A stretch of 64,000 bases of DNA from Candidatus Latescibacterota bacterium. Lineage in GTDB: Bacteria; Latescibacterota; UBA2968; UBA8231. Location: the NCBI GenBank assembly GCA_022820485.1, contig JAJEFJ010000099.1, forward strand, positions 34,942-98,941. Reading direction: 5' to 3'. A program made the translations under genes and the position numbers. This document shows, one piece after another, positions 11,382 through 40,303 of the stretch (positions within the stretch are counted from its first letter, which is position 1; each line of letters starts with the position of its first letter). The notes under the pieces were generated by a model. It was not told the origin of the DNA and did not search any database. It worked only from the letters and a program-made list of their open reading frames with translations.

Positions 11382-13451
11382 TCAATAAGCCAAGCCCACT
11401 GGTATGAGCCGTTTGATTACTGCCGCCTCCCCTTCGACTTCTAGCCCGAGCAGGTAGAGGCCGGTCGGCAAAAGTGACCCGCTGTCGTCGCGGCCGTCCC
11501 AACGAATGCGCTGTAGGCCCGACTTCTGGCTGCCTATCGCTAGGGTCGCGACTTTGCGGCCGTCGAGCGCGTGGATATTCAGCCGGGTTGCTACGGTACG
11601 GGGCAGCCCTAAGAGAGTGTACTCGATTTCCAGCAGGTCGTTGATGCCGTCGCCGTTGGGCGTGACGACCGCAGTAGAGAGGCGCAGGTCGCGGATCTTT
11701 TCGGCCTGAGTGGTTGAGGCGGCAAGGACGCGTAGGGTACTAGTGGCAATATCGTCGCCGACATCGCCGTCCTGTACGGGCTGAGGCAGGCTCTGGCGCT
11801 GGCTGTCGAGTACTTCGCCGTCGAAGGTCCAGGCAAAGTCGAAGACCTCGGCGGCGAAGACGACGCGGATCAACTCGTTGCGCCCGGCGCTCAGGCGCTC
11901 CGGCAAGTGTACTGTCAACCCGGCCGCGCTTTCGACTATCTCGCTCGCTTCCACCTGTCGCAAAGGGGTGCCCATTTCGAGGTGCTTGAACGCGGGCTGT
12001 CCGCCGGTGCGGATGCGCAGCGCGTCGAAGCCGGTGTCGCCAGCGGAAACTTCCGCTTTGACATCGTAAACAAACTCTGTCGTCGCGCCCATTTCCACCT
12101 CGGCAACGCCGCGCAGGGGCTGGGGGTCGTCCAAGCGGGCCACTTCGCCGATAACGGAGGTAGCCAGAGTCGGCGAGGTTTCGATCCACAGGGAGTCGAG
12201 CCGCACGAAGGCGTCGAAATCCTCGCTGTTCAGCACGATTTTTAGCTGTAGATGGGAGCCGGACCGCAGGCCGAGCGTTTGGCCCGACTCGAATGTTGGG
12301 ACCGACCAGAAGGTCCAGTTGTCTTGGTCGTATTCGATGCCGGCGCGAATTCCCGGCTTGGGGCGCGTCGTCAGCGTCAGCGTTCCGCCTTGGCCGTCGT
12401 CGGTGTTGACTGCCCCACTCGGGTTTTTGAGCACGTCTTGGTAGCGTTGCTGCGACACTGGGACGCGAGTGCCCATGTCGGTGAACTCGTAGTAGATGTC
12501 CGGCTTGGGGTCAATGCCAGTGCGCGCCTCGACTTGGATTGAGACGGGGGCGTCAGGGGCCTCCACCGGCTCGCCATCCACCATTCGCAGCGGGGTCGCC
12601 GACCAAGAGAAGCGGCCGAAGTTGACCTTCGGTCCCAGATCGAATATCCGCGTCTTGTACACCGCACGCAGGGGAACACCCTCGCCGAAGAGTTCGAAAT
12701 CACCAATGGTACCTCGGTGGGCTTGGCCTTTGGCGAAGATTGCCTGGGACGATATTTGCAGGGCCTCGATCTGGGCGGCTTCGAGCGAGCGCGAGAGCCG
12801 GCGGATATAGCGGGCGAAGCGCACGTACTGGCGGGGGAACTGGTGCTGTACGACGGGACGGAAATTTTCCTGCACATCGGCGATCTGCCGCCATTCGTTT
12901 GGGTTATGGGCGGCGATGTAGAGTTCGTAGGCGGGTACGACATCTTCGCGCAGACTCTTCCCGTCCGAGCGGTATCCCTGCGAGGGCGTGTAGAACCCGA
13001 AGGCGAAGATGGGCACTGGCACGGCTAGGTCGAAGGTGAAGGTGCGGCCGTCGGGACTGCCGCCCGAAGAGGGCGCGAGATAGGACGTGCTGTCGCCATC
13101 TACCAAGCGCAAATTGCCAGACACTCGCGGTCTTTCGCCGTCGACGTAGCCCAGTTCGCGGGGATTCCAACTGCCCCAGTTGGTCAGATAGGAAAAGACG
13201 GAGCGGTCGGGCTGTATATAGACGGGCTGTATCGCGCCGGGCGTGGTCGTCTCATCGATGAGAATGGCGACCGAGTCGTGCTCGGCCCATTCCAAGCCGC
13301 TACCGCCTAGCTGCCACAAGGCAATGTCGGCCTCCGCTGTGGAGATCCACGACGCGACCAGCCATAGCAAGATGAGCGCATAGGTCATCTGATTCCTATG
13401 GCTGAGTGCTCGGCAGGTAGTCAGGCGTTGGGTTGGTTTCGACTTGTCCAT
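11382..13451 (-). CDS. Secreted large protein with a discoidin-like segment and a C-terminal FlgD-Ig-like domain
   Basis: 689 aa. N-terminal hydrophobic helix, then LVDGDSTSYLAP. The C-terminus VVTPNGDGINDLLEIEYTL...IHALDGRKVATL...WDGRDDSGSLLPTGLYLLGLEV fits the FlgD_ig pattern. Confidence 0.6.
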   Translation of the reverse strand: MDKSKPTQRLTTCRALSHRNQMTYALILLWLVASWISTAEADIALWQLGGSGLEWAEHDSVAILIDETTTPGAIQPVYIQPDRSVFSYLTNWGSWNPRELGYVDGERPRVSGNLRLVDGDSTSYLAPSSGGSPDGRTFTFDLAVPVPIFAFGFYTPSQGYRSDGKSLREDVVPAYELYIAAHNPNEWRQIADVQENFRPVVQHQFPRQYVRFARYIRRLSRSLEAAQIEALQISSQAIFAKGQAHRGTIGDFELFGEGVPLRAVYKTRIFDLGPKVNFGRFSWSATPLRMVDGEPVEAPDAPVSIQVEARTGIDPKPDIYYEFTDMGTRVPVSQQRYQDVLKNPSGAVNTDDGQGGTLTLTTRPKPGIRAGIEYDQDNWTFWSVPTFESGQTLGLRSGSHLQLKIVLNSEDFDAFVRLDSLWIETSPTLATSVIGEVARLDDPQPLRGVAEVEMGATTEFVYDVKAEVSAGDTGFDALRIRTGGQPAFKHLEMGTPLRQVEASEIVESAAGLTVHLPERLSAGRNELIRVVFAAEVFDFAWTFDGEVLDSQRQSLPQPVQDGDVGDDIATSTLRVLAASTTQAEKIRDLRLSTAVVTPNGDGINDLLEIEYTLLGLPRTVATRLNIHALDGRKVATLAIGSQKSGLQRIRWDGRDDSGSLLPTGLYLLGLEVEGEAAVIKRLIPVGLAY

Positions 13452-15754
13452 CAGTAGGCTACCGAGATTAGGTGGTTCTCGCTGCGGGTAAGCGCGTCGC
13501 CTTCCGCGGTGACGCGGAGGATGTAGATACCGGGTGCGACCGTGCGACCTTGGCTATCGCGTCCGTCCCATTGATAGGTCTGGTGCCCGGCTGTGGTGGC
13601 TGCGTCGCTGATGAGGGCGACCCGGCGGCCAGTCAAGGTATAGACGCCGATAATGACTGGTCGGGGATCGAGCACTTTGAACAGGTCGAGGTCAATTTGC
13701 AACCGGTCTGAGATACCGTCGCCATTGGGCGTTATTACCCGGTTCGATAGCGACAGATCCGCAAAGAGTCGCCCGTCGGTGGGCAGGGAGACAAATATCC
13801 GGTCGCTGGCAATAGCCGCCTCGGCGTCGCCCGGATCGACCTGTTGACGCGCAGTGGTTGACAGGGCGCTGTTGAACAGAAAGGCTTCAAAGCGGGTCTG
13901 GTTGAGATAGAGGGTGCTCTCAAAGTCGATTTCGATTAGGGTCGAGCGGCGAACCGGCTCGGAGAGGAAGAGCTTGAAACCATTTTCAGTTTCTTCGACC
14001 GTGGGGGCGATTGGCTCGCCGGCGAGGCGCAGCGCGCGGAAGGAGGCCCCGGCGGTGGAGGCGAGTTGGATCTGATCGAAGCCCCGGCTCGATGAGACGA
14101 ACTCGGAGCGAAGATAGTAGGTAAACTGACTCATTTCGCCGGGGGCAACCTCGACGGGAAAGACTTCGGCTCGCGTCTCTTGAGCGAGCGGATTGTCGAA
14201 TTCGAGGACGATCTCGTCTAAAGTGGCGGCGGTGAAAGGATCTTCGGAGAGGAAGCGAATGTCCAATTGCACGTAGCGTCGAGGACCGGGCGAGAGAAAG
14301 ACTTGGCCAGAGGTCGCGTAAGCCCGGCTCCAGTTGCTCCAGTCGGCTCCGGCGGCGCGGATGGTGTCGATGGCTCCTCGGAAGCTGGGGATCAGCTTGT
14401 CGTATTTTCGCTGGGTGACTTGCTTGCCGTTTTTGTCGTAGAAGACGTACTGGTTGTCGAGGATGTTGCCGGTGCGGCTGCGAATTTCGACGTGAGACCC
14501 CGGCGGCGCGTCGAGGTTCCAGCCGATTTCCGCAATGTGCTGTATGGAACCGAGGTCGTAAATGGGCGAACGCGCCCTGACTTCGGCGGGGTAGCCCTCG
14601 CCAAATACCTGCCATTCGGCCGTGGTGCCGATGCGGCCGTTAAAGGCTTCAAAGCCCTCGGACATGGGGAAAATCAGCCGCACGTGGCGGACTTTGCGCA
14701 AGGGGAAGCGCTCTTGAAAGTGGCGGACTTGCGTTAGGTTGCGGCGATCCGAGGGCAATTCGCCCAGCAGTTCCCAACTCAACGAGCCATCCGGTGCCCG
14801 GGAGCCGTCGGAGACAAAAAACTGATACCACAGATAATTGAAGACGCCAGACCGGTGGCGACCCGAGCCTTTGCCCGGGGCTACGCCGCTGTCATCGCCC
14901 AGCATCCGCACCCGATCCACCCAGTATAGCGCACCTAGGTCTATTTCGAACTGTCCGATCTGCTGTTCGGGCTGGGTACCCGAGCCGCCGCGATGCACCG
15001 TGCCCCAGTAGGTGGTGATATCGCCATCGACGAGGGTATTGCTGATCCCCTTCGACTCGATGAGCGTGCGGCCCAACTTAGAGGTGGCTTCAGAAATGAT
15101 TTCGACGCTGCCCCCGCGGCCCCAGATCCCCAGCGAAAGGTTGTCGCCGATGCTTTCGACCACCACCTCGCTCAGGCGGATATTCTCCGTGGGCAGGTCG
15201 GCTTCAATGCGGATATTCTTCAGCGGCTTAAGCTCATAGTCGATCTCGATGATGTGGGCTTGGTTAAAGCTGTAGCGCCAGCGCTTGTTGTAGCGCAGGG
15301 TGCCAGGGAGGATGGAATTGGCATTGCTGAAAAAAGGCTCGCCGTCGGAGGTAAGGACTTTGAAAAACTCCAGCGGGGTGCTGTCGGCGGCGAAGTGGAG
15401 CTGGATGTTGCGCGCCGAGACCACGCGCCCCAGATCGACTTCAATCCACCAATCCTCGACGCGGGCGTTTGGATCGGGTGCCCAATAGGTCGCCGGATCG
15501 CCGTCGATGAAATGGCGGGCGTCGCCGGGGTTGGAGCCGACTTTGCGGATGCCGCCGCTGGCAAAGTCTAAGGCGTTGGCCACGGCGTTGATGTTGCGGC
15601 GGACAAAGGTGGGTTTGAGCGTACCGCGTGCGACTTCGACGGCGTTGCCGGGCAGTTGCCATTGGCGCCAGTCGTTGGAGGTGGCGATGCGAAGTTGGTC
15701 GCCAGCGAGGGGCGTGGCGAGCAGTAGAGCACTTATGAGGATGGCGTTGCGCAT
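13451..15754 (-). CDS. Secreted large protein, two F5/8-type-C (discoidin)-like segments plus a C-terminal FlgD-Ig-like domain
   Basis: 767 aa with a signal peptide. FIDGDPATYWAPDP...WWIEVDLGRVVSARNIQLHF and LVDGDITTYWGT...FEIDLGALYWVDRV. The C-terminus is ITPNGDGISDRLQIDL...YTLTGRRVALI...WDGRDSQGRTVAPGIYILRV. ATGA overlap with the next gene. Confidence 0.6.
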   Translation of the reverse strand: MRNAILISALLLATPLAGDQLRIATSNDWRQWQLPGNAVEVARGTLKPTFVRRNINAVANALDFASGGIRKVGSNPGDARHFIDGDPATYWAPDPNARVEDWWIEVDLGRVVSARNIQLHFAADSTPLEFFKVLTSDGEPFFSNANSILPGTLRYNKRWRYSFNQAHIIEIDYELKPLKNIRIEADLPTENIRLSEVVVESIGDNLSLGIWGRGGSVEIISEATSKLGRTLIESKGISNTLVDGDITTYWGTVHRGGSGTQPEQQIGQFEIDLGALYWVDRVRMLGDDSGVAPGKGSGRHRSGVFNYLWYQFFVSDGSRAPDGSLSWELLGELPSDRRNLTQVRHFQERFPLRKVRHVRLIFPMSEGFEAFNGRIGTTAEWQVFGEGYPAEVRARSPIYDLGSIQHIAEIGWNLDAPPGSHVEIRSRTGNILDNQYVFYDKNGKQVTQRKYDKLIPSFRGAIDTIRAAGADWSNWSRAYATSGQVFLSPGPRRYVQLDIRFLSEDPFTAATLDEIVLEFDNPLAQETRAEVFPVEVAPGEMSQFTYYLRSEFVSSSRGFDQIQLASTAGASFRALRLAGEPIAPTVEETENGFKLFLSEPVRRSTLIEIDFESTLYLNQTRFEAFLFNSALSTTARQQVDPGDAEAAIASDRIFVSLPTDGRLFADLSLSNRVITPNGDGISDRLQIDLDLFKVLDPRPVIIGVYTLTGRRVALISDAATTAGHQTYQWDGRDSQGRTVAPGIYILRVTAEGDALTRSENHLISVAY

Positions 15755-15833
15755 GGGATGTATCCGGTTGAGCCAAGCCTATAATCCAATATAGGACGCG
15801 CAAAAGGAGTCTAACAACAAATAATTCCCCGCG

Positions 15834-16211
15834 CTAGGCCACTCCGATGGAAGCGTGGATCTGCGCAAACTTCCATTCACCCGCCTCCCGCTCCAAGACG
15901 CCCGTCAAACGCAGGGCCAGTTCCTCGTCTTGGCCCTGCCATTTGAGCCGCCACTGCTGCCGGGTGTAGAACCAAGCCACCGAGTCGCGCTCCTGCACGT
16001 CGAGATGTTCTGTGTCGATGGTGAAATCCTGGGTACTGGCGACGTGGTGATGGTAGTACTGGACAGCGCGCCCACCGCCCTCGATGTATTCCCCCGGTTC
16101 AGTGCCGATCTTGACAAAGTGATCGGCTGGGGAGATGAGATCGATGAGCCGGTCGGCATCGCCTGTTGTCAACGCGGCGAAGTAGGCCTCGACCGTCTGG
16201 CGGGCGTTCAC
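15834..16211 (-). CDS. SnoaL/NTF2-like fold protein
   Basis: 125 aa. QTVEAYFAALTTGDADRLIDLISPD...W(K)FAQIH is typical of the NTF2-like family. Confidence 0.6.
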   Translation of the reverse strand: MNARQTVEAYFAALTTGDADRLIDLISPADHFVKIGTEPGEYIEGGGRAVQYYHHHVASTQDFTIDTEHLDVQERDSVAWFYTRQQWRLKWQGQDEELALRLTGVLEREAGEWKFAQIHASIGVA

Positions 16212-16375
16212 TGCACTCGCTCGTGGGGAATGGAGGCTTGGGGCACAATGGCAATCTCCTCAGTGAATTTGCAGGTAGCGTAACTTCTTGCGATCCGCAG
16301 CAATCCGCAAGTTTGACAGCCAACGGCTCGCTTGTATAATTGAGCCTCCTCATCGCTTTCCTAGTATCCGACGCC

Positions 16376-17476
16376 ATGGCCCGCATCCTGCTCGCCCTTT
16401 TCATCGCCGTTCCGCTCCGCGCCGATATCTACGACCGCCTCGACGAGCTGACCCATCACCTGCGCTCGGGTGGGGTGCCCCGCGACGGCATCCCGGCCAT
16501 GACCAACCCCCTGAGCGTTGCGCCGGAAGACGCGCACTATCTCGCGGATTCGGATCTAGTCCTCGGCGTGGTGGCAAACGGCGCAGCGCGGGCTTATCCG
16601 CATCGCCTCGGTTGGAAGCACGAAGTCATCAACGACCAGCTCGGCGGCCAGTACATCAGCGTCACGTTCTGCCCGCTGACTAGCACTGGACTCGTTTTTG
16701 ACGCGATGGCTGCGGACTCAACACAAATCGAACTCGGCGTTTCCGGCATGATACTCAACAGCAACTTGGTGCTGTACGACCGACGCGACGAGAAAACCCT
16801 GTACCCGCAGATGATCTACACCGGCATTAGTGGCACGCGCAAAGGGCAGTGCCTCCAGCTCTTGCCCGTGATCGAGACGACGTGGGGCCTGTGGCGTGCG
16901 CTGCATCCGCACACCACGGTCGTCCAAGCGGCGACCGGCCTCGACCGCTACCCGGATTATATCCGCGCCCTGTATCCGCTCGATGCGTACGGCCACTACC
17001 CTTATGGCAATTACCGCAGCGACCATCGGATGATTATTTTTCCGCTGACTACCGCTCGGCCTAGCGATCGATTGTCGGCCAAGGAAATGGTCTTGGGATT
17101 GCGAGTCGCTGGCGAGAGCAGGGCCTATCCGTTCAGCAGGATGCCCGCTAAGGCCGTCATCAATGATCGCATTGGCGACCGAGATATGCTGGTGCTCTAC
17201 GACGCCGAGACGGCCACTGCCATTCCCTACAGCCGCGTTGTTCGCGGCCAAGTTTTGAGCTTTCGCATCCTCGGCCGCACCGGCGACCTGCCTTTGGCCT
17301 TTGCCGACGTAGAGACCGGCAGCGAGTGGAACATGCTCGGCGAGGCCCTTGCTGGCCCGCTCAAGGGAGCGCAGTTAGAGCAGATCCCAGCCTATAATTC
17401 GATGTGGTTTGGGTGGTCGGCCTACTGGCCGGATACCCGCTTGTGGAATGGCGAGGGCATCTTGCCCCCACCCTGA
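16376..17476 (+). CDS. DUF3179-domain protein
   Basis: Internal ATG of track ORF 16340..17476. GVPRDGIPAMTNP...AYPHRLGWKHEVINDQLGGQYISVTFCPLTSTGLVFD is the hallmark DUF3179 block. Confidence 0.7.
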   Translation: MARILLALFIAVPLRADIYDRLDELTHHLRSGGVPRDGIPAMTNPLSVAPEDAHYLADSDLVLGVVANGAARAYPHRLGWKHEVINDQLGGQYISVTFCPLTSTGLVFDAMAADSTQIELGVSGMILNSNLVLYDRRDEKTLYPQMIYTGISGTRKGQCLQLLPVIETTWGLWRALHPHTTVVQAATGLDRYPDYIRALYPLDAYGHYPYGNYRSDHRMIIFPLTTARPSDRLSAKEMVLGLRVAGESRAYPFSRMPAKAVINDRIGDRDMLVLYDAETATAIPYSRVVRGQVLSFRILGRTGDLPLAFADVETGSEWNMLGEALAGPLKGAQLEQIPAYNSMWFGWSAYWPDTRLWNGEGILPPP

Positions 17477-17496
17477 TTCTGAGAAGGAGCTTGGCT

Positions 17497-18630
17497 ATGC
17501 ACGAAGTCCCCAAAGGGAAAATTACTTGCATTGAAAAATGCGTGCTGCGCGGCACTCGGCCGCGCTACATAGGCTTCAACGCCCGCATTCCCGCGCACGG
17601 ATCGCAGATCTCGGATCCGGTCGTCCGAATTCGCACGGACAGTGGGGCTTGGGGCTTGGGTTGGTCGCGCATTGGCGAGGACGAGGCGCGGGCGCTGCTC
17701 GGCAAGGAGATCGGCGATCTCTTCCAACTCCCCGACGGCTGCCTGCCCGCAGGCCGCAACCTCGACCTGCCGCTGTGGGATTTGGTGGCGCGGATGATGG
17801 ATTTGCCGCTGTACCGCCTGCTCGGTGCCCGCGGCAAACGCGAGGTCGAAGTGTACGACGGCTCGGTCTATATCGACGATTTGGAAGCCACAGATGAGGA
17901 ACAGGTCAAAGACATCTTCCGCGGCGAAGTAGAAACCGGCCATGAGCACGGCTATTTGCACTTTAAGATCAAGGTTGGCCGCGGCGCGCGCTGGATGCCC
18001 ACGGATGCGGGCCTCAAGCGCGACGAGCTGGTCATTCGCACGGTGCGCGAAGCCGCCGGCCCGCAGGCCAAGGTGCTTATCGACGCCAACATGGGCAATA
18101 CGCTCAACACGGCTATCGCCCTGTTGGACGCCTGCGCGGACGTGGACATCTATTGGTTTGAGGAGCCTTTTGCCGAAGACGCTCCGCTCAATCAAGCACT
18201 CAAGGAACACATCGTCTCAAATGACTGGGACACGCTGGTGGCCGACGGGGAATTTGCGCCGCCGCCGTACTTTTTTGATTTGGTAGAGAAGGGATTTATC
18301 GACGTGGTGCAGCACGATTTTCGCGCCATGGGGCTGACGTGGTGGCGGAGCACGTCGGCACGGCTAGAGCAGTGGAACGCGCTCTGCGCCCCCCACTGCT
18401 GGGGGTCGTACGTCGAGCGCTTTCACCACGCCCATTTCGCCGCTTCGATCCCCAACTTCTGCCTGCTCGAAGCCGCACCGGCTGCCATGACCGGGCTAAT
18501 CACCGATGGCTGGCGACTGGCCGACTCCATCCTGCACGTACCCGACACACCCGGCGCAGGTCTCGACATCGAGCCGCGCATCTTCGCGCAGGGCATGGAG
18601 GATCGAGAGGGATTTAGGGTGGCGATTTGA
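17497..18630 (+). CDS. Enolase-superfamily enzyme (mandelate racemase/muconate lactonizing type)
   Basis: ATG at 17497 preceded by GAGAAGGAG. KIKVGRG, LIDANMGNTLNTAIALL, IYWFEEPF are the metal-ligand D/E/E blocks. Confidence 0.75.
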   Translation: MHEVPKGKITCIEKCVLRGTRPRYIGFNARIPAHGSQISDPVVRIRTDSGAWGLGWSRIGEDEARALLGKEIGDLFQLPDGCLPAGRNLDLPLWDLVARMMDLPLYRLLGARGKREVEVYDGSVYIDDLEATDEEQVKDIFRGEVETGHEHGYLHFKIKVGRGARWMPTDAGLKRDELVIRTVREAAGPQAKVLIDANMGNTLNTAIALLDACADVDIYWFEEPFAEDAPLNQALKEHIVSNDWDTLVADGEFAPPPYFFDLVEKGFIDVVQHDFRAMGLTWWRSTSARLEQWNALCAPHCWGSYVERFHHAHFAASIPNFCLLEAAPAAMTGLITDGWRLADSILHVPDTPGAGLDIEPRIFAQGMEDREGFRVAI

Positions 18631-18748
18631 GGGTGAAAAATAAAGAATAGGGAGGCGAAAATCGCAGTTATGCATATCTTTGTACAATCCCCTTTATCCC
18701 CTGCCGTTTTTCTGTCCTAAATACGCTGTAAGTGAGGAGGAGTGTGCG

Positions 18749-20164
18749 ATGACAGACGATCTTCATATCAACCCGTTCGAGAAGATCGACACCAATCAGG
18801 TCGCCGAAGATCTGCATATCGTAGAGGATAGCCAACGGAACGCGAGGCGGGGGCGGCCCGCATTAGACAGTGCAGAAGACGATCTCGACCCCACGGAACG
18901 CAAGGTTATCGGGCTAATTGAGAGCGCTCAAGCGCAGGCACAGCAGGTGTGTGAGAGCGAGCTAAAAGCCTACCGGGAGCGGCTCGTCGCGCTAGATTTT
19001 CGGGAGCAGCTAAGCTCTATTGACATTGAAACGGCCAAACAACGAGCGGAATTCGATCAGCACGTCGATAAGGCCATCGTGGAGTTGAGCAGAGAACAAC
19101 AGGGGCTGCGCCGCAAAAAAGAAGACATGCAGCAGTTTAAGGAACAAAATGGCCTTCACCGCGAGCCGCAGCCCCGCAGTTGGGACGATAAGATATTTAA
19201 CATCGGCATCATCGCCGTGCTCTTTCTCATTGAGACATTCGGCAATGCCTCCTTTCTGGCCAAGGGCAACGAATTTGGGCTGTTCGGCGCGTACACCGAG
19301 GCGATTGTCATTTCGTTTGTCAACCTCGGGATTGCCTTTTTGCTCGGCATCCTCGTGACCAATTTTAACCACGTTCACCGGGTCAGAAAGTCCGTGGGCA
19401 TCCTCACCGCAGTGGTGTTTCTGGCCTTTGCATTGTTTTTCAACTTGATGGTGGCGCACTATAGGGAAACAACGGGCACAGTGCTCGACGAAGGGGGCAA
19501 ACTCGCCATCGCCGCTTTTGGCGCAAATCCATTGGGGCTGGAGGACTTCCAATCGTGGATCCTGTTCTTCATGGGATTCCTCTTTGCGATTATTAGCTTT
19601 ATCGATGGAATCCTATGGGATGATCGCTATCCGGGGTACGCCAAGTGTGCGCACGTGTTTGCGGAGGCCGACGAAGCATACAACGAATTCTATCAGTCCT
19701 GCCTAAAGGGATTGAAGGAAACGTCGAATGAGGCGGTGCAGGCGCTGGAGAACATCAAGCAAAACCTTTTGCTCGCCGGGCGACAACACGATTCTATCAT
19801 CGACGATCATCGCCGCCTTATCAGATCGTTCGACGATCATCTAGATCACTTGGAGCACGCGTGCAACCACTTGCTCCAGCTCTACCGGGATACCAACCGG
19901 GCGATGCGCGACGGCGAAGCGCCAGCGCGATTCAAGAAGCCTTGGCATATCGTGAAAACGCCCATCGACACCAGCTTGCCAAAGGCCATGCTGACGCGCG
20001 AGGAAATTTTGAAGATCACTAGCGCCGCAGAAATAAAAATTGACAAAGGCGTCGCCGAACTACACACTCAGTACGATATGGGCAGCGAGGAATTGCGCCC
20101 GTTGGCTCCGCATCGGAGGCAGGCGGATAGCCGGATCCCGAGGGACGACCAGGAAGAGAGTTAA
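18749..20164 (+). CDS. Unassigned integral membrane protein: coiled-coil-like N-region, four TM helices, helical His/Asp-rich C-region
   Basis: ATG at 18749 preceded by GAGGAGG, inside track ORF 18680..20164. Hydrophobic helices: IFNIGIIAVLFLIETFGNASFL, LFGAYTEAIVISFVNLGIAFLLGILV, VGILTAVVFLAFALFFNLMVAHY, WILFFMGFLFAIISFIDGILW. I recognise no named family. Confidence 0.6.
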   Translation: MTDDLHINPFEKIDTNQVAEDLHIVEDSQRNARRGRPALDSAEDDLDPTERKVIGLIESAQAQAQQVCESELKAYRERLVALDFREQLSSIDIETAKQRAEFDQHVDKAIVELSREQQGLRRKKEDMQQFKEQNGLHREPQPRSWDDKIFNIGIIAVLFLIETFGNASFLAKGNEFGLFGAYTEAIVISFVNLGIAFLLGILVTNFNHVHRVRKSVGILTAVVFLAFALFFNLMVAHYRETTGTVLDEGGKLAIAAFGANPLGLEDFQSWILFFMGFLFAIISFIDGILWDDRYPGYAKCAHVFAEADEAYNEFYQSCLKGLKETSNEAVQALENIKQNLLLAGRQHDSIIDDHRRLIRSFDDHLDHLEHACNHLLQLYRDTNRAMRDGEAPARFKKPWHIVKTPIDTSLPKAMLTREEILKITSAAEIKIDKGVAELHTQYDMGSEELRPLAPHRRQADSRIPRDDQEES

Positions 20165-20964
20165 TGAGCGCGGGTAAGCTATCGAATAAAACGATAGCCG
20201 GGGGTGCGATGATCGCGGGGGTCATCGTCGTCTTGCTTGTTTTTGTGTTGTTAAAGCCCCCCTCGGTCGAGCGCGATCCAAAGACCCTTTGCCGGTCGGA
20301 AGGGCCCTCGGCGATTACGGCGATTCTGCTCGATCGCACGGATTCGTTCATGCCCACCACCAAATCCGATCTGGAGACCCGGATCTGGAACCTGCTCGAT
20401 GAGATCGAGGAAAATCACGAGATCAGTCTTTTTGCGGTGGACCCTGAGCATGGTGGGAGCCTCGATCCGATCATCAAGGTCTGTAGCCCCGGCGACCCTA
20501 AAAACGTCGATCACCTCACGCAATCCGAAGCAATCATTCGGCGCAACTGGCAGCAGAAATTTCGCACGCCTTTAGAAGAGGAGCTCGGCAAGCTGCTCAC
20601 CAATAAAGAGGCGAAATCGTCGCCGATCATGGAGTCGGTGCAGTCGGTTGCCATAAAGCATTTCCAGAGCACCAAGCGGCGCGATGTGCCGCGGCGTCTC
20701 ATCGTCGTTTCAGATCTGCTGCAGAACAGCGACGCGATTTCGTTCTACAAGGATGAGCCGGATTTCCAGCGCTTCCACGGCAGTCCCCAAGCCCGAGGGC
20801 TAAACCCAGATCTGCGGGGCGTCGAGATCGAGCTATGGCTCATTCAGCGGAAGCAACGGCAGCAGGGAGACGGAGAAGCCGTGTTGCAATTTTTCCGCTC
20901 TTGGCTGGCGGAACACGGAGGCCGAGTTCGCGCGTCCGTGCGAACTTCGGGCATAAATAATTGA
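20164..20964 (+). CDS. Membrane-anchored vWA-like protein (variant MIDAS D-x-T-x-S)
   Basis: 266 aa with a TAATG overlap to the upstream gene. TM helix IAGGAMIAGVIVVLLVFVLL, then AILLDRTDSF ... SSPIMESVQSV ... RRLIVVSDLLQNSD, in the order expected for a von Willebrand A fold. Confidence 0.5.
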   Translation: MSAGKLSNKTIAGGAMIAGVIVVLLVFVLLKPPSVERDPKTLCRSEGPSAITAILLDRTDSFMPTTKSDLETRIWNLLDEIEENHEISLFAVDPEHGGSLDPIIKVCSPGDPKNVDHLTQSEAIIRRNWQQKFRTPLEEELGKLLTNKEAKSSPIMESVQSVAIKHFQSTKRRDVPRRLIVVSDLLQNSDAISFYKDEPDFQRFHGSPQARGLNPDLRGVEIELWLIQRKQRQQGDGEAVLQFFRSWLAEHGGRVRASVRTSGINN

Positions 20965-20974
20965 TATTAACCGC

Positions 20975-21190
20975 TCAATCGTCCAAGCCAAGTGCTTTTC
21001 TCACCTCGGAAGAGGAATGTACCTTTTCCTCTCCTTGGCGGACGCGTTCTAGCACGGCCATGGCGAGGTAGTAATCTTCGATGTCCTCAAGGCTGCGTTC
21101 AGTGAGCTTGCGCCGGTAAAAAGCCTTGCTACGCCCGGTCTCGGACACCAGCAGGTCGAGCCGTCGCTCGGTCTCGGGATCTAGTTGCAT
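20975..21190 (-). CDS. Ribbon-helix-helix (CopG/RelB-type) antitoxin, orphan
   Basis: MQLDPETERRLDLLVSETGRSKAFYRRKLTERSLEDIEDYYLAMAVLERV...EVRKALGL. ATG at 21190 (the track ORF starts at GTG 21235). There is no toxin ORF downstream. Confidence 0.65.
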   Translation of the reverse strand: MQLDPETERRLDLLVSETGRSKAFYRRKLTERSLEDIEDYYLAMAVLERVRQGEEKVHSSSEVRKALGLDD

Positions 21191-21285
21191 CGTGGTTGCC
21201 TCATCAGAGAGTCTTAACGCATGTTGGATGTCCACAAGTAAAAACTAAGCTGGACATCAAGCCTCGCATCTTCGTCAGTCTGCTT

Positions 21286-22485
21286 ATGGAATTCATATAT
21301 CAACCCGCTTCAGCCAATCGACTCGGAGATTACCTCAAAGCCAATCTCTCGGCCCCCAGGCCTTGGACACAATTCCGCGCTGCAGTCGCTTTCGCAAAGT
21401 GCTCCGGCACCAAGCATATTGCTCCCTCGTTGGGGGATTTCGCAAAGGAGAACCAAGTTGAAATCATCGTCGGAATCGACCACCGCGGAACCTCTTTTGA
21501 AGGACTCAGCGATCTCATAGAGGCAGTTGCTCCTCACGGTCGGGTAATAGTTTTTCACAATCGGTTGCCATATACCTTCCATCCGAAAATCTATCTTTTC
21601 AAATCCGATACTGCTGCCGAAGTCATACTCGGTTCGGGCAATCTGACAGAAGGTGGCCTGTTTACCAACTATGAAGCCGCGCTCCGATTGTCGTTTGATC
21701 TCACAGATTCGATCGAAGCTGCTAGGCTCCGATCTATTGAAGACGTCCTTGATGCTTGGGCCAATCCCGCACTAGGTACTGCACAAATCCTTGATGAAAC
21801 CATTCTTAATCGGCTGCTAGATCTCGATCTTGTTCCTAAAGAGGCCCTTGCTGATCCCGAAATGAGGGACACGATGGCCCCCCAATCCACAGCGGCAGGG
21901 AACGTCGAGGATGAAGTCGAAACAGAACCTCTTTTCGCCGCTCGGCCCGAACCACGCGCCCCAACGACACCACGCGCCCCAACGACACCACGTTTCACCA
22001 AGGCAGAAGAGGTGGGCAAACCAAGAACGGGGACAAAGGGCTTCGTCATGACTCTCCACCGCACCGATGTCGGCGTCGGCCAGACCACTACTGGCACTTC
22101 TAGGCGTTCGCCGGAGATATTTATTCCGCTTTCAGCCCGAAATGCCAATCCCGATTTTTGGAAATGGCCCCATGCCTTTATTCCCGATCCAAGCAAGCAA
22201 GGTAAGAGTGATCGCTCTAATGTGCGTATGAGCCTTGACGGCCAGATCATCTCCGTCAACATGATGAATTGGCCCGACAAACACGACTTTCGCTTACGCA
22301 ATGAGGCATTGCGCAATGCTGGGAGCGTTGGAGACATCATGCTAATGGAAAAAGTCGATGATCTAGCATGCGACTTTGAGTACTACGTGGAGATAATATC
22401 CAAAGGTACTTCTCAATTTCCAGTATATCGTGCCCTTTGTACAGAGTCCGTGCCTAATTCAGAAAAACGCTATGGCTACTACTGA
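21286..22485 (+). CDS. BfiI/NgoFVII-like restriction endonuclease: N-terminal PLD (HKD) nuclease domain plus a C-terminal B3-like DNA-binding domain
   Basis: ATG at 21286 in track ORF 21196..22485. FHPKIYLFKSD...VILGSGNLTEGG is the HxK...GSxN motif. The C-terminal KGFVMTLHRTDVG...PEIFIPLSARNANPDFW...HDFRLRNEALRNAGSVGDIMLMEK fits a B3/EcoRII-N-type pseudobarrel. Confidence 0.7.
   Translation: MEFIYQPASANRLGDYLKANLSAPRPWTQFRAAVAFAKCSGTKHIAPSLGDFAKENQVEIIVGIDHRGTSFEGLSDLIEAVAPHGRVIVFHNRLPYTFHPKIYLFKSDTAAEVILGSGNLTEGGLFTNYEAALRLSFDLTDSIEAARLRSIEDVLDAWANPALGTAQILDETILNRLLDLDLVPKEALADPEMRDTMAPQSTAAGNVEDEVETEPLFAARPEPRAPTTPRAPTTPRFTKAEEVGKPRTGTKGFVMTLHRTDVGVGQTTTGTSRRSPEIFIPLSARNANPDFWKWPHAFIPDPSKQGKSDRSNVRMSLDGQIISVNMMNWPDKHDFRLRNEALRNAGSVGDIMLMEKVDDLACDFEYYVEIISKGTSQFPVYRALCTESVPNSEKRYGYY
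21952..21992. repeat. 18-bp tandem repeat (about 2.3 copies) in the interdomain linker of the PLD nuclease
   Basis: ccacgcgccccaacgaca occurs at 21952..21969 and 21970..21987, followed by a partial copy. It encodes PRAPTTPRAPTTPR. Confidence 0.9.
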
Positions 22486-24068
22486 GGCTTTTCAAGCGTC
22501 AAGATATGTTCTGACTTCATCGCGTTTTTCCGAAAAATGTCCCGCGATGCGAGCATGTCCATTGGCAGACTGCTCGTTACTTTGAACCCAAGTGTCTCCG
22601 CGATCGCCGCTAGATGATCGGCAGTGCAAATTTCAACCACCTCGCGACCAGCCGTAGTCCGGTTATTGCCAATTACTAAAAACATCACCCCACCTGGGCG
22701 CAGGAGACTCTCTGTCTGTTCGATTACAGAGTGCATATCAAAGAAGTACTTCGACAACAGAGCCGACATGTTGCGTCGCCGAAAGCCGACCGCTGTCGCT
22801 TTATTGAGTCGATCAATCCGTTCAATCAAAGCACGTGTAGCCGTAGGTAGAAGTAGCTTATTTTCTTCGTAGAAAGCCCAGTACTGCGTCCGACACCTTT
22901 CGGTTACCTCTCGGTTGCCTATCATCATCCCATCCCGTGCCCGATGATTAGCGCGACGTAGAAGCCCGAGATAAATCAGGCTCAACCGATCCGTATCAAT
23001 GTAGGGCAATGCCGTTGCATAAGGGGGCGAAGTGATCACCGCATCAACCTTGCCGATCAGTGTCGGTATGGCATCCACGGCCCGACGTGCATCGGCCTCT
23101 TGTACTGTATAAGTGCCTAATCTCTCTTGGCCTCGTTCTGCGAGGAAAGCAGCGACGATTTTAGTCGAGCGTAGGGCTTCATTGAGAAAGAGCGTTATCA
23201 CTTCGCCGGTTTTGAGTTCGACCACCTGCTTGCGTACCCGCAGATCGTCGTTTTTTTGCCAAGAGACGCTGCGCAGTATATTGCTCAAGCAAATCCGATA
23301 GAAGTCTTGTAGTTCCAGCGTTGGCAACCGCTGCACAGATCCTATTACTTGGTCGAGCTCCATCAGAGTGTGCGCCGCAAACCACCGCTCCAAATATGTT
23401 TGATCGTCCTTTGGCAGCGACGCAAAGTACTTTCTTGTAGTCTGATCTGATAGAGATGTACAAAGAACCTCTTGCAGCGTCCCGTATGCTTCCATTAATG
23501 ACTCTGCATTCAACGCTAATGCCTGGCACTTTATCTTGGCGATGAATACCGAAAGCGGATTCATGTCGAGCCCGTACGCTTCGCGTCCAGCAAGCCGCGT
23601 CTCGACCAGTGTGGTGCCGCTACCGCACATCGGATCGAGCACAATGCCGTTATCAGGCACTTGGGCGATATTTATGAGTGCCCGCACCAGTTGCGGAAAG
23701 AATTTACCTCGATACTCGTGTAGCCCGTGAGTAGCATAGCGCAAGCAGCGTTTTTTAGGCAGCTTGGCGGGAACGGAGGGTATCAGCCCGTTGAACATCC
23801 CCCCGTTGTGTGCGCTGACCCAGGTTGCCTCACGTCGGATTTGGATCGTCAGCCCGTCTGGCTCGGTGCCGACTTCCTGCCAGTACGCCAAGGCGTTGCG
23901 CAGGGTACCGAGATTGGCCGCATCGGGCACCGAGAATAGTGAGGCGTTCGCCTCATCGCCATCTACCGGTATGACATCACCTGGGGACAGGGCCCGCAAT
24001 TCCTGCAGCGCAAGCTGTCGCTCAAACGGCTGTATATATCCCTTAATTCTACACGTTAGGAAACCCAT
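22479..24068 (-). CDS. DNA methyltransferase, SPPY type (N4-cytosine or N6-adenine), copy 1
   Basis: 529 aa. YATHGLHEYRGKFFPQL, LDPMCGSGTTLVE (motif I) and VITSPPYATALPYID (motif IV). Confidence 0.8.
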   Translation of the reverse strand: MGFLTCRIKGYIQPFERQLALQELRALSPGDVIPVDGDEANASLFSVPDAANLGTLRNALAYWQEVGTEPDGLTIQIRREATWVSAHNGGMFNGLIPSVPAKLPKKRCLRYATHGLHEYRGKFFPQLVRALINIAQVPDNGIVLDPMCGSGTTLVETRLAGREAYGLDMNPLSVFIAKIKCQALALNAESLMEAYGTLQEVLCTSLSDQTTRKYFASLPKDDQTYLERWFAAHTLMELDQVIGSVQRLPTLELQDFYRICLSNILRSVSWQKNDDLRVRKQVVELKTGEVITLFLNEALRSTKIVAAFLAERGQERLGTYTVQEADARRAVDAIPTLIGKVDAVITSPPYATALPYIDTDRLSLIYLGLLRRANHRARDGMMIGNREVTERCRTQYWAFYEENKLLLPTATRALIERIDRLNKATAVGFRRRNMSALLSKYFFDMHSVIEQTESLLRPGGVMFLVIGNNRTTAGREVVEICTADHLAAIAETLGFKVTSSLPMDMLASRDIFRKNAMKSEHILTLEKPQ

Positions 24069-24072
24069 TTCA

Positions 24073-25326
24073 TTATACTTTCTGCAGAATCAAGATATTT
24101 TCGGTATTGATCTTCCCAATTTTGGGATTAAAGGCCTTTCGGGTTGGCGCAATCGATCGTTGAATCCGCGCTATCTCTCGGAAGCCAACGGTAGCCCCCG
24201 CTTCCGCGATTAGCGATGCGTTGTCGATGCGTGCTCCGTTTAAGGTTGAATCCCCGATCACGAAGCAGGCGTGGCGATGGTCGCGCAACCTGTTGCGCAG
24301 CCACTGGAAAATCTGCTCAAACTCTGCACTAAAGGTCGCGGCTGTGGCCCGATTGCGACCTTTAGCACTGTATTTGCGATGGCTGCCTATCTCAATCCTC
24401 TTAAATTGTTCTGGCTCATATCCGAGCCAGAGTAAGCGAGTGCGGTGGTAGAGATGGTAACTATAGGCATTGGGATAGGGGGGCGAAGTGATCACTAGAT
24501 CAAATGGTTCGGTTTCGGGTGCCTCTAGGATATTCGCGTTCAACACGCGGCAAGAAGAACGGTCATCGAGCACTTTGGTAAGTTCGCGCACTGCCGAGAT
24601 GGCGGCATCGAGATGGGCCAGATAGCGCCGCACTGCACCTCCTAACTTGCTCTGCTTTTCGCGCCGGACATAGCGGGTATCCGAATCCTGTTTTGAGACT
24701 GCCACAATAATCGCAGAAAAAACCACCGCACATAAGGTATGGGCTGCCTTACTTGGGACTTGGTCAATCAGGCGGCGCAATTCGGCTAGTTCCTCTACAA
24801 CATGGGGTTTGAACCAGAACTGGCACATCTCTGGATCCGGCCTCCAGCCAGCGGATTGAAAGGGTTGTCCGGTATAGAATAGATCGCCACTGTTAAGCTC
24901 GGTCTCCACCAAAAGATGCTGGCAGTGGGCGCGATGCGCGGCCAATTCCTCGAATTCCGACTGTGCGAGTGGTGTGGTTTTGGCCTTGCTGATGAGGACG
25001 GCGAGGGGATTTGCGTCAATGCCGATCGCGTGATGTTTAAGCTGGAGTGCCTCCAAGAGCGTGGTCCCGCTGCCACAAAAAATATCTGCGACCGTTTCTC
25101 CGGACGACGATAGCTCCTCGATTAAGGCATTGGGTATTTGTGGAATAAATTTTGCCGGATAGGGGTGTAAGTTATGTGTTAGATAGTCTGTTTTGGCGGT
25201 TGCAAAGTCCCATTCAATGGCCTGTAAGCGAGTGCTGATGACTTCGTCGTTGTGCGCTATGGAACACACTGCTTCTCGTCCACTGTTTTTGGCGAAGGCG
25301 ACGATTTCAGCGTCATTTGGGCACAT
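24073..25326 (-). CDS. DNA methyltransferase, SPPY type (N4-cytosine or N6-adenine), copy 2
   Basis: 417 aa. THNLHPYPAKFIPQI, DIFCGSGTTLLEA (motif I) and VITSPPYPNAYSYHLY (motif IV). Separated by 4 nt from copy 1. Confidence 0.8.
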   Translation of the reverse strand: MCPNDAEIVAFAKNSGREAVCSIAHNDEVISTRLQAIEWDFATAKTDYLTHNLHPYPAKFIPQIPNALIEELSSSGETVADIFCGSGTTLLEALQLKHHAIGIDANPLAVLISKAKTTPLAQSEFEELAAHRAHCQHLLVETELNSGDLFYTGQPFQSAGWRPDPEMCQFWFKPHVVEELAELRRLIDQVPSKAAHTLCAVVFSAIIVAVSKQDSDTRYVRREKQSKLGGAVRRYLAHLDAAISAVRELTKVLDDRSSCRVLNANILEAPETEPFDLVITSPPYPNAYSYHLYHRTRLLWLGYEPEQFKRIEIGSHRKYSAKGRNRATAATFSAEFEQIFQWLRNRLRDHRHACFVIGDSTLNGARIDNASLIAEAGATVGFREIARIQRSIAPTRKAFNPKIGKINTENILILQKV

Positions 25327-25399
25327 AAAATTTCTCTGTTAATCTCCTTCTCCAACCTTTTTATCACCAAGGTACGAACTTCAGACTCTATATCTATAG

Positions 25400-26014
25400 T
25401 CAATTAGTCAATCCGTGATCTCTAGCGTAGCTAGAGAAATGACAAGTCTGCCATTCTCGAATTAACGGTAAGAGCGGGTGCTCCACCATTCCTGCCCGTT
25501 TCCAATCAGCATTTATCTCTCCCAAGGAACGTATAGTGTATCCTATCGTACCCACAGAAAGAACAGCTAAACAGCCGCCCGTGGATGGCAACTCATTAGG
25601 TCCCAGATTAGGCGACCCGTCGCCTTCGTAACAAAAACTGGAACCATTAGGTGCAGCCCTTATCCACCTCCAATCAATGTCATCCTGAACCTCTTTAGGC
25701 GATACGTAATATAAATTATTCAATGATTTCACTACATCCTCCGAGCAACGATTTATGGGTTGTATAAACCCTATAAGGTCTGACTCGTTCGGTATGTACT
25801 CAGGGGGACAGTCATCATCTCGACACAATGCCCATCCCCTCCTTGCCACCGCATCTATTATTCGCGCATGGTCGTCAGCCGTCATAGACTTACAACCCCT
25901 AGAGCGAACATACTTGATAAACTTGACAAGGTAGGGTTTCAACTTGATAGCCCCCGTAAGATAAGGACCAAAATCCTCCGGCAGGATTGATAAATGCCTC
26001 TGTGAAAACCACAT
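25400..26014 (-). CDS. Hypothetical protein, first gene of the methyltransferase strand
   Basis: ATG at 26014 preceded by AGGAGG (the track ORF extends to 26044). 204 aa with no motif I recognise. AT-rich codon usage. Confidence 0.5.
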   Translation of the reverse strand: MWFSQRHLSILPEDFGPYLTGAIKLKPYLVKFIKYVRSRGCKSMTADDHARIIDAVARRGWALCRDDDCPPEYIPNESDLIGFIQPINRCSEDVVKSLNNLYYVSPKEVQDDIDWRWIRAAPNGSSFCYEGDGSPNLGPNELPSTGGCLAVLSVGTIGYTIRSLGEINADWKRAGMVEHPLLPLIREWQTCHFSSYARDHGLTN

Positions 26015-26214
26015 GATAATCCTCCTACAAATTCTAAAACGCAAAAAATCCTTGAAAAGGCTTAAAATTTTAATGGAATATCAATCCCAAACCTGAGTCT
26101 AATGTCGAACAAAATGCGAGCGCTTTCCGAGCTTGCCTCCTTACCTACTCATTTGTTCAATATACTTGCCAGAGAGAACACAAGCAAGCGAAGTTATCGG
26201 TGACGAGTACCCGC

Positions 26215-27075
26215 TCAGCGTTCCAACCACCTCGGCAAGCGAATTTCAGCAGACTGCTGCCAGGCCGTCAGATAAAGCGAGGCCGTAAAGCGCACGGAGG
26301 TGCGGGCCAAATCTAAGGTCCGGGCGCGCACGCGAGCGTCGTTCTCGTCTTCCCAATGGCCCCACAGCGCGTACACCTCTTCAACCCGCCAGTTGCTTTT
26401 TTTGATCTGGCCAGTGATGGCCTTCATCAGCGAATCAAAGGCTGCAACGTCCTGCTCGGCCGCCAACTCCTCGGGCGCAAAGCCGAGCCGCTCCACCGCT
26501 GAATCCACCTGTTCGTGGATGCCCTTACCCATAACCGTGCCGTCCGCTTGCTTCTTGCCGTCGTAGTTCAGGGTCGCGTGCAGAGGTTGGCAGATGTCTT
26601 GGGCATAGTGGGCGAGAATGCCCGCATAGACGAGGCACTTCTGTTGGATCGCCTCGTTCTCCGGCCACTGGCGATGCTCGGCAAAGGCCACGGCTAGCCG
26701 CTCGGTCCACTCGGCGATGGCGTACGGGGCCATCCCAACCCGTGGCGGGTCCAATTGTAGCTCGAAGCACAAGGCGATAAAGTCAAAGCGCTTCGCCGGA
26801 ATTGCGCGTCCCTCAAGGTATTCTATATCGAAATAGTGCTCTCCGTGTTCGGCGTGGCTCAACAAGGGGGTGCGGCGATTCTTAAACAGGTCTGGGTCGA
26901 AGACTACGTGGCTGGGAATGTCGCCGCCTTGACGAAAGAAAGCCGGCATTTCTTCCGGCAGGGCCAGCACCGCCGCCTCGGTCAGAATCCCGTGTCCATC
27001 CCCCCACCAAGCCTGGGCTGGAACGGCCACTAAACTGGCGACGACTGTAAGCCATGTTGCGCGGATTGTTCTCAT
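26215..27075 (-). CDS. Secreted S1/P1-nuclease-family protein
   Basis: 286 aa. A signal peptide is followed by WWGDGHGILTEAAV (the W-G-x-x-G-H start of the mature enzyme) and AHYAQDICQPLHAT (the H..D..QPLH zinc-ligand block). Confidence 0.65.
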   Translation of the reverse strand: MRTIRATWLTVVASLVAVPAQAWWGDGHGILTEAAVLALPEEMPAFFRQGGDIPSHVVFDPDLFKNRRTPLLSHAEHGEHYFDIEYLEGRAIPAKRFDFIALCFELQLDPPRVGMAPYAIAEWTERLAVAFAEHRQWPENEAIQQKCLVYAGILAHYAQDICQPLHATLNYDGKKQADGTVMGKGIHEQVDSAVERLGFAPEELAAEQDVAAFDSLMKAITGQIKKSNWRVEEVYALWGHWEDENDARVRARTLDLARTSVRFTASLYLTAWQQSAEIRLPRWLER

Positions 27076-40271: not shown

Positions 40272-40303
40272 GGCGTTATTCCTGAAAACATTGTGTCATT
40301 TCT

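Follow-up and report, generated by a model that had tools for sequence, protein, structure and literature searches.

Zorya, which combines ZorA and ZorB with the type-specific partners ZorC/D, ZorE or ZorF/G, and RexAB, an abortive-infection (Abi) system in which the ion channel RexB with its four transmembrane (TM) helices is gated by a partner, are among the described systems closest to the locus studied here. In Zorya, ZorA and ZorB form a 5:2 motor (ZorA5B2) driven by the proton-motive force (PMF), and the system acts directly, not abortively (PMC11946911). Additionally, inner-membrane-tethered periplasmic proteins with the vWA (von Willebrand factor A) domain, encoded beside TolQ(R)-like motors, have been proposed to act as force transducers (Mol Biol Evol 2025, PMC12204202). 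We analyzed a 64,000-nucleotide stretch of contig JAJEFJ010000099.1 from a Candidatus Latescibacterota bacterium (hereafter the window), with a focus on two adjacent genes, g1 and g2. The two genes encode a co-translated inner-membrane pair that was ancestrally joined to a ZorAB-like motor and is viable without it. The pair is neither Zorya nor the published motor-tethered vWA transducer, and it is no RexAB, Bat, MoxR or TerY system either; its closest likeness is to the half of a Zorya-like operon that encodes the partner proteins.

The g1-g2 pair is the front half of a four-gene operon

g1 (18749..20164, + strand) encodes a 471-residue inner-membrane protein of an unannotated family, as judged from its open reading frame (ORF), its homologues and an AlphaFold2 (AF2) model, and g2 (20164..20964, + strand) encodes a 266-residue membrane-anchored periplasmic protein of divergent vWA fold, as judged from its ORF, AF2 and Foldseek. 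The long ORF that contains g1 spans 18680-20164, and we place the g1 start at the ATG at 18749, since the N-termini of the homologues align there and a Shine-Dalgarno-like GAGGAGG (18734..18740, +) lies 8 nt 5' of it. The junction of the two genes (20152..20166, +) reads as another Shine-Dalgarno-like sequence, GGAAGAG, followed by TAATG (20162-20166), in which one base is common to the g1 stop codon and the g2 ATG, an overlap indicating translational coupling. In the 22 sister loci, the longest g2 ORF begins at this last base of the g1 stop or, in three of them, 3 nt upstream of it. Both are real genes and not chance ORFs, since they have many full-length homologues, which at 90% identity form 64 clusters for g1 and 44 for g2. 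A profile search with g1 collected 3,750 clusters at 50% identity, of which 2,005 reached E<=1e-30; its best 150 matches were all essentially full-length and mostly of 430-500 residues, and none of the clusters carried a Pfam domain or an informative name.

Related loci were collected by a scan for a g1 motif in one genome per GTDB species, which gave 109 confirmed loci, 80 of them retrieved (L numbers below denote these and further related loci): 22 Latescibacterota orthologues, 6 paralogues and 52 loci elsewhere. The orthologues have 89-99% identity, and one of them is filed under Gemmatimonadetes. The paralogues are 43-51% identical, five of them in Latescibacterota genomes that also hold an orthologue or another paralogue, and the other 52 loci belong to Alphaproteobacteria (Hyphomicrobiales), Arenicellales, Vicinamibacterales, Bryobacterales and Gammaproteobacteria. 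g2 lies directly 3' of g1 in 78 of the 80 loci, the exceptions being one contig end and one rearranged or misassembled short contig. Outside the clade of the 22 orthologues (n=58), a third gene, g3, follows the pair in 55 loci and a fourth, g4, in 54; the missing copies are mostly accounted for by truncated contigs. Nine more loci, found by exact protein, all have four genes and include the closest outgroups (54-60% identity), and the plasmid locus L089 is four-gene as well. Together, these data place g1-g2 as the front half of a widespread operon, g1-g2-g3-g4.

An initial annotation of this DNA had read g1 as a 471-residue protein starting at the GAGGAGG-preceded ATG, g2 as beginning in the g1 stop codon, and the two as a coupled two-gene module. 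The sequence and the homologue N-termini bear out the start, the TAATG overlap is as described, and the pairing recurs at 78 of 80 loci in several phyla, but the two-gene scope does not hold outside the window's clade, where g3 and g4 follow at 55 and 54 of 58 loci. Searches of the literature turned up neither the four-gene operon nor the g1 and g2 families, nor any Zorya type with vWA or membrane partners, and a model for operon or pair is absent from PADLOC-DB v2.

Several loci vary the arrangement. In L074 (Vicinamibacterales; about 12750-17780), a g3 ORF of ~1,000 residues is followed by a second g3-like ORF before g4. On the short contig of L077, a g2-profile match lies on the opposite strand and g1 is overlapped by a g4-like ORF, probably through misassembly or rearrangement. 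In L084, from a root metagenome, a DUF4236 protein of 382 residues (1271-2419) overlaps the g1 start by 8 nt, suggesting an extra upstream operon member in some lineages.

The pair is maintained alone in the window's clade

No match to g3 or g4 was found in the whole window by hmmsearch at E<=10. Since all nearest outgroups have four genes, g3 and g4 were probably lost in the ancestor of the 22-genome clade, and the window holds a reduced derivative of the four-gene operon. The ORFs of g1 and g2 are intact in all 22 species-level genomes, and purifying selection on them is strong, as on neighboring core genes. Specifically, the ratio of nonsynonymous to synonymous substitution rates (dN/dS) within the clade is 0.093 for g1 and 0.11 for g2, with dS up to about 0.5, as compared with 0.086 for the flanking enolase-superfamily gene and 0.137 for a flanking gene of 286 codons. 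Within g1, the N-terminal, TM and C-terminal regions give 0.058, 0.107 and 0.128, respectively, and all family-invariant residues are kept in the g1 and g2 proteins of the clade. A distant second lineage, L093, also carries only g1-g2, between housekeeping genes. The constraint in a clade that lacks g3 and g4, together with the two-gene L093, means that the pair is selectable on its own, which strongly argues that g1-g2 is a self-sufficient functional unit. The window's clade and L093 thus serve as natural 'deletion experiments' for the g1-g2 half.

Four of the 22 genomes additionally hold a complete paralogous four-gene operon (L023, L024, L025 and L027, beside the orthologous loci L015, L019, L014 and L021). 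The other 18 gave no second g1-type match in the same scan, which was aimed at g1.

Predicted structure of g1

The AF2 model of g1 is confident, with a predicted local distance difference test score (pLDDT) of 89.6 and a predicted TM-score (pTM) of 0.70. It consists of an N-terminal hairpin of helices (48-81 and 84-133), a core of four TM helices (145-170, 177-207, 211-242 and 267-288), the third loop of which carries a short helix (249-259), and a helical tail made up of a long 90-residue helix (297-386) and a further helix (417-452), which agrees with the three-part organization that had been read from the sequence. The core of four TM helices and the short periplasmic helix (residues 145-288; 19181..19612, +) is defined by the alignment, the AF2 model and the loop charges. 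The TM2-TM3 loop is rich in Lys and Arg and the TM3-TM4 loop is acidic; given this charge bias, both large helical domains, residues 1-144 and about 297-455, are placed in the cytoplasm. The homologue alignment shows invariant E162 and N166 in TM1, G177 and G180 at the start of TM2, N192 within TM2, and H237 and R239 in an AHYRE motif at the periplasmic end of TM3. The conserved segments FLAKGNEFG, in periplasmic loop 1, and AHYRE...NPLG face the periplasm.

The statement of the initial annotation that g1 belongs to no named family stands, as sequence and structure searches found no relative. Neither g1 nor g2 gave a significant match to Pfam, PADLOC, NCBIfam or PHROGs; the PADLOC scan returned sub-threshold matches of coiled-coil type only (ZorA1 at 17.8 bits, ZorC at 11.4 bits). 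A Pfam scan of 44 g1 homologues one by one yielded scattered coiled-coil noise and three sub-threshold RexB matches, a sequence-profile search of the PDB with g1 yielded generic coiled coils only, and Foldseek of the g1 model against the PDB and the viral models of BFVD yielded only long-helix proteins with TM-scores below 0.25. We also considered g1 as a second MotA/ZorA-like subunit and rejected this assignment, with hhalign probabilities of 1.9% against g3 and 0.3% against TolQ+ExbB.

Predicted structure of g2

The AF2 model of g2 (pLDDT 84.9, pTM 0.81) shows a TM helix (6-29) followed by an alpha/beta domain, in line with the single anchor and alpha/beta fold proposed earlier. The linker between membrane and domain is ~20 residues long, from the end of the TM helix at about residue 29 to the start of strand beta-1 at residue 50. 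Since the N-terminal tail is strongly basic (Lys/Arg-rich) across the family and is followed by a single hydrophobic helix, g2 is assigned the N-in, C-out (type II) orientation. The TM helix has no acidic residue, except in four members with a truncated N-terminus, and a role as MotB/TolR-like plug was rejected for lack of such a residue. An OmpA domain, as in MotB-type proteins with peptidoglycan binding, is absent from g2 as well.

Foldseek matched the g2 domain to integrin I domains, VWF A1/A3, BatB (3ibs, 4jdu) and Rpn10, with 77 matches at E<=1e-3, a top probability of 1.0, E values of about 1e-5 and target-normalized TM-scores of 0.45-0.57. None of 32 g2 family members matched a Pfam vWA model (VWA, VWA_2, VWA_3 and others) at E<=0.5, and a sequence-profile search of the PDB with g2 found nothing, vWA domains included, so the vWA assignment is a structural one. 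The g2 family is thus a very divergent vWA.

The canonical metal-ion-dependent adhesion site (MIDAS) has the motif D-x-S-x-S ... T ... D. The conserved pattern of the g2 alignment is C43, D57-x-T59-D60, C107-x-P109, S153-P154 and S183-D184. Specifically, D57-R-T59-D60 (20332..20343, +), in which D, T and D are invariant, directly follows beta-1 at the position of the first MIDAS loop; the invariant S153-P154 (20620..20625, +) at the start of helix 155-167 is a candidate second metal-site loop; and the invariant S183-D184 (20710..20715, +) at the end of strand 177-183 is topologically equivalent to the MIDAS Asp after vWA beta-strand 4. In the model, D57, T59, D60, S153 and D184 form an acidic/hydroxyl cluster at the MIDAS position. 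Of the earlier proposal of a vWA fold with a D-x-T-x-S variant of the MIDAS motif, the fold is thus supported by Foldseek, but the motif is DxTD, as S61, the fifth MIDAS position, is variable across the family. Two further residues, C43 (20290..20292, +) and C107 (20482-20484, +), are invariant in the alignment, and their location in the periplasmic domain suggests a candidate disulfide.

g3 and g4 look like motor subunits of the ZorA/ZorB type

The g3 proteins of the related loci have about 400-470 residues, with three or four N-terminal TM helices followed by a coiled coil of ~300 residues, and carry the invariant motifs GDNxYYxGF..T..L and F..A...T..G...R. When the TM region alone was scanned against Pfam, MotA_ExbB (PF01618) was by far the most frequent family (9 of 26 members, best E 4e-5). 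g3 matched the PADLOC ZorA models at up to 3e-10 and the ZorA chains 8qyd and 8vvn of the PDB at about 8e-9, and the 8vvn alignment crosses the junction between the last TM helix and the tail. Hidden Markov model searches did not link g3 to E. coli TolQ, ExbB or MotA. Because the evidence for the TM region is mixed, we call g3 MotA/ExbB-like with the architecture of ZorA and do not claim proven homology.

The N-terminal TM helix of g4, GLTMAEIMLLLVF, contains an invariant Glu and leads into a helical linker. In Alphaproteobacteria the g4 C-terminus is OmpA-like (Pfam OmpA, E 3.7e-5), and the g4 on pRL11 of Rhizobium johnstonii 3841 carries the name 'OmpA family protein' from the Prokaryotic Genome Annotation Pipeline. 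Together, g3 and g4 look like a MotA/MotB-like pair and share the architecture of the ZorA5B2 PMF motor. g4 occurs in two forms (L081-L087, e.g. L083 13757-14542), which have the N-terminal TM helix in common and C-termini that are unrelated between lineages. The second form, found in Latescibacterota, Thalassospira and Vicinamibacterales, ends in a Cys-containing domain of ~110 residues with no family match and a conserved 'PSCW..DG..YIYD...ECRFFVRVFD'.

Comparison with described systems

The relatives of the window share several features with Zorya: their g3 joins MotA/ExbB-type TM helices to a long coiled-coil tail, as in ZorA; their g4 in Alphaproteobacteria has a single TM helix, an acidic residue and an OmpA-like peptidoglycan-binding domain, as in ZorB; and nucleases are often attached to the four-gene operons. 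However, the TM domain of g3 is only weakly MotA/ExbB-like, g1 and g2 are integral-membrane and periplasmic proteins whereas the Zorya partners are described as soluble and cytoplasmic, no ZorC-G model is matched by g1 or g2 above threshold, the genes of the partner pair stand upstream of those for the motor, and the nucleases found with the operons are exported. No ZorA/ZorB-like gene occurs in the window itself, and as ZorA, ZorB and ZorC-G are absent, its element is not Zorya. We rate this element as kin to PMF-motor-associated envelope systems of the Zorya type.

Like the proposed vWA force transducers (PMC12204202), g2 has an N-terminal TM helix and a periplasmic vWA fold, and MotA/TolQ-type motor genes adjoin it, though in the four-gene relatives only and not in the window. 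It differs from them in that its TM helix lacks both the SHLS/His motor-binding motif and a TolR-like transpore Asp, its linker is not the long Pro-rich disordered one with which the first family spans the periplasm, no Pfam vWA model recognizes it, and its constant partner is g1, which that work does not describe. BatA/BatB are likewise membrane-anchored vWA proteins, and the BatB structures were among the best g2 Foldseek matches, but g2 has no BatA or VWA_2 sequence match and its conserved motif is DxTD. In contrast to MoxR-vWA and TerY systems, no MoxR ATPase, DUF58, kinase or phosphatase partner is adjacent. MoxR, kinase and phosphatase genes were found neither next to the pair in the window nor in the Pfam-annotated tables of related loci examined, and these families were not among the 25 commonest Pfam families of 132 nearest-neighbor proteins; the window likewise shows no ATPase, kinase or protease partner, as had been noted initially.

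g1 resembles RexB in being a four-TM inner-membrane protein with a partner gene, and the sub-threshold RexB matches fall in its TM region. For the window g1, the match has an E value of 0.028 and 15.3 bits, below the Pfam cutoff of 27; matches at E<=0.1 occur in three of the 44 g1 members (best 0.0053). Unlike RexB, g1 has two large cytoplasmic coiled-coil domains, and its partner g2 is periplasmic.

Possible function of the pair

We propose that g1-g2 is an autonomous envelope-surveillance module that most likely serves to defend against phage or other incoming DNA, a tentative reading to which we assign a probability of about 0.4. The ZorAB-like partners, the exported nucleases beside many operons and the occasional defence or mobile-element neighbors make a defence role plausible. 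The periplasmic vWA domain of g2 might bind a protein ligand through its metal-site-like face, the ligand being a foreign component that enters the periplasm or an envelope component altered on attack. The signal would then pass through contacts with the periplasmic loops and TM core of g1, if the two proteins touch, to the cytoplasmic bundle of g1, and/or a putative ion path lined by E162, N166 and N192 would open. In the four-gene relatives, this unit would be coupled to a PMF-driven g3/g4 motor and the motor tail, and often to an exported nuclease.

Several points weigh against this proposal. The homology of g3 to MotA/ExbB appears weak: its ZorA matches are largely driven by the coiled coil, the TM-only g3 profile found nothing in the PDB, and hhalign of g3 against a two-sequence TolQ+ExbB template gave a probability below 1%. 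The MIDAS-like site of g2 is degenerate, to judge from its residues, and no vWA sequence model matches it; we infer both the physical interaction of g1 with g2 and any pore; and the defence function of the pair is a best guess. Additionally, the pair sits in its clade at a fixed, syntenic and vertically inherited locus, which is more core-like than defence cargo. Most immediate neighbors of the four-gene operons are housekeeping genes, the defence enrichment being modest and given without a statistical test, and g3/g4-like genes may exist elsewhere in the two-gene genomes.

A role against phages or mobile genetic elements is plausible but unproven, and we favor it over a PMF-linked envelope function outside defence, a serious contender that we hold to be rather unlikely. 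On the latter account, g1 and g2 would be accessory or transducer subunits of a PMF-driven 5:2 motor, similar to TolQRA, ExbBD-TonB or the vWA transducers, and serve to maintain the envelope or in adhesion, surface motility or transport; within the window's clade, the two proteins would work by themselves or together with a motor of housekeeping type. The MotA/MotB-like g3 and g4, neighbors that are mostly housekeeping, such as PBP1A or LpxB beside the operon, and the fixed, syntenic locus with core-like dN/dS in 22 species-level genomes would all fit, as would the precedent of tethered periplasmic vWA proteins beside TolQ(R)-like motors, already proposed as force transducers (PMC12204202). 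Yet the TM helix of g2 lacks the SHLS/His motif and the TolR-like Asp, its ~20-residue linker is too short to span to the outer membrane, the system occurs sporadically among lineages and is associated with megaplasmids, integrases and nucleases, and the long cytoplasmic tail of g3 is described for ZorA in the literature consulted, which does not mention it for other 5:2 motors (PMC11946911). It is also conceivable, though improbable, that the pair acts by abortive infection, as the initial annotation had suggested for a membrane-embedded sensor/effector pair, with g1 as a toxic depolarizing ion channel and g2 as its periplasmic sensor or gate. The invariant Glu and Asn within the membrane, the paired His and Arg where TM3 ends on the periplasmic side, the weak RexB matches in the TM region and the persistence of the pair without another effector gene would agree with a channel, but those matches are far below threshold and do not recur, no PADLOC Abi model matches, nothing shows pore formation, and Zorya, the nearest characterized analogue of the parent operon, acts directly (PMC11946911).

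Two further explanations concern the loss of g3 and g4. The pair might be non-autonomous and act in trans with a motor of the g3/g4, MotAB, TolQR or ExbBD type encoded elsewhere. We think this quite improbable: four of the 22 two-gene genomes do hold a complete paralogous operon, but cross-talk with it is not assured, as the paralogues are only 43-51% identical; the other 18 genomes have no second g1-type match in the same scan (aimed at g1), and the distant L093 is pair-only too. That the pair is a decaying, functionless remnant, as the loss of g3 and g4 taken alone would allow, is effectively refuted by the purifying selection on g1 and g2, with ORFs intact in 22/22 genomes, dN/dS of about 0.1 like neighboring core genes, every g1 region constrained and all family-invariant residues kept.

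The defence proposal also has a broader version, which we regard as unlikely: the four-gene operon would be an unrecognized, widespread Zorya-like system with its motor wired to g1-g2, and the pair alone a new two-component membrane immunity module. Here the motor would be linked to this membrane and periplasmic pair, which an exported nuclease would often join, and not to effectors that are soluble and cytoplasmic; the envelope or the periplasm would then be the place where incoming DNA or the infecting particle is encountered, and the g1-g2 half would be an autonomous sensor-effector that works without the motor; in the window's clade, a conserved exported neighbor resembling phospholipase C and P1 nuclease could be the effector. 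It is possible, too, that the autonomous pair is categorically new.

The g1 family is large, with its about 3,750 clusters covered by no model of Pfam, NCBIfam, PADLOC or PHROGs, by no solved or viral structural relative and by no description in the literature searched, and g1 and g2 are the invariant core of an operon that otherwise holds a ZorA/ZorB-like motor. If the defence reading is true, the Zorya principle of an envelope-anchored PMF motor as infection sensor extends to partners in the membrane and the periplasm and to nucleases that are exported; otherwise, the operon encodes a new PMF-motor-linked envelope machine. The function of the operon is directly testable, since cultured, genetically tractable hosts carry it in full, including Rhizobium johnstonii 3841 pRL11 (RL_RS31080-31100, the last being the thermonuclease gene), Thalassospira profundimaris, Mesorhizobium, Devosia and Paracoccus yeei.

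Neighbors of the four-gene operons

The commonest neighbor of the four-gene operons is a thermonuclease of the staphylococcal nuclease (SNase) type, present at 15 of the 58 non-clade loci, all in Alphaproteobacteria; it directly adjoins the operon at 14 of them and lies about 2.8 kb off at one. SNases also stand beside the operon at L081, L089 and L095. The named SNase-flanked loci, with the nuclease next to g1 or g4, are L035, L038, L040, L048, L054, L061-L068, L081, L089 and L095. All three SNases checked have signal peptides, and some SNases carry a C-terminal Zn-binding-like segment. The L095 operon runs on into genes for an SNase and for an exonuclease of the RNase_T family. Three four-gene loci have integrases or a resolvase at their flanks, and type III CRISPR genes and AAA_15/21-DUF4276 genes lie near some operons. 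Among the 132 nearest-neighbor proteins, about 8-9 gave strong PADLOC matches, the types being type I restriction-modification (R-M), DRT1, PDC-S01, LeoA, SIR2 and a PbeA-like protein. Homologues occur on 24 plasmids, mostly rhizobial and Paracoccus megaplasmids, and those that are annotated are almost all named 'hypothetical'. A phage origin was considered and rejected, with one match in 2.9 million viral contigs; being equal in length to the Faunimonas genome contig of L057, the matching contig is probably identical with it and was called viral or prophage by IMG/VR.

Surroundings of the pair in the window

The pair has a GC content of 54-57%, 4-7 points below the 60-62% of the flanking core genes, which upholds the earlier remark on AT-richer DNA and is consistent with an old horizontal acquisition. 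Scans for tRNA genes, Rfam families, promoters and terminators around the pair found nothing relevant.

Directly downstream, between the convergent ends of g2 and a gene at 26215, lies a strain-specific insertion (20965..26210), delimited by blastn, junction sequences and annotations. This 5.2-kb cassette has a GC content of 46-56% and was found by blastn against L001-L022 only in the window, L001 and L002. It comprises a RelB-like antitoxin gene with no adjacent toxin (20975-21235, -; NCBIfam 5.9e-25), a phospholipase D (PLD)-family nuclease (about 21292-22485, +), two N6/N4 DNA methyltransferases (22479-24068, -, and 24073-25326, -), these three as annotated, and a 214-residue ORF of no family with 45.7% GC (25400-26044, -), the segment of which (25334-26062) is missing from L001 and L002. 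In most sister genomes, ~30 bp separate g2 from the convergent gene at 26215. The RelB gene alone is shared, at 95% nucleotide identity, with four other sister genomes whose cargo is different, so the site looks like an insertion hotspot. The orphan antitoxin and the R-M system that the initial annotation had placed beside the pair are thus present, but we rejected them as defence evidence, since an insertion that, besides the window, only L001 and L002 carry is hardly informative on g1-g2.

The gene at 26215-27075 (-) encodes a 286-residue protein that has a signal peptide and whose mature N-terminus is predicted to be WWGDGHG; its Pfam matches, to Zn-dependent phospholipase C and to S1/P1 nuclease, are weak (E 0.02-0.04). 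In most sister genomes this gene is conserved as the convergent neighbor of g2; that exported SNases likewise stand beside the four-gene operons is possibly a coincidence. On the other side, the region upstream of the enolase-like gene (11231-17400) is a mosaic, with blocks 11231-16290 and 13400-15740 present or absent among L001-L022, so that the fixed pair is flanked by two variable regions. Lower GC (48-53% as compared with about 60%) also marks positions 40000-47000, 53000-55000 and 63000-64000 of the window, which carry large ORFs, for example 41133-44210 (1,025 residues) and 44248-45330, and may be further horizontally acquired islands.

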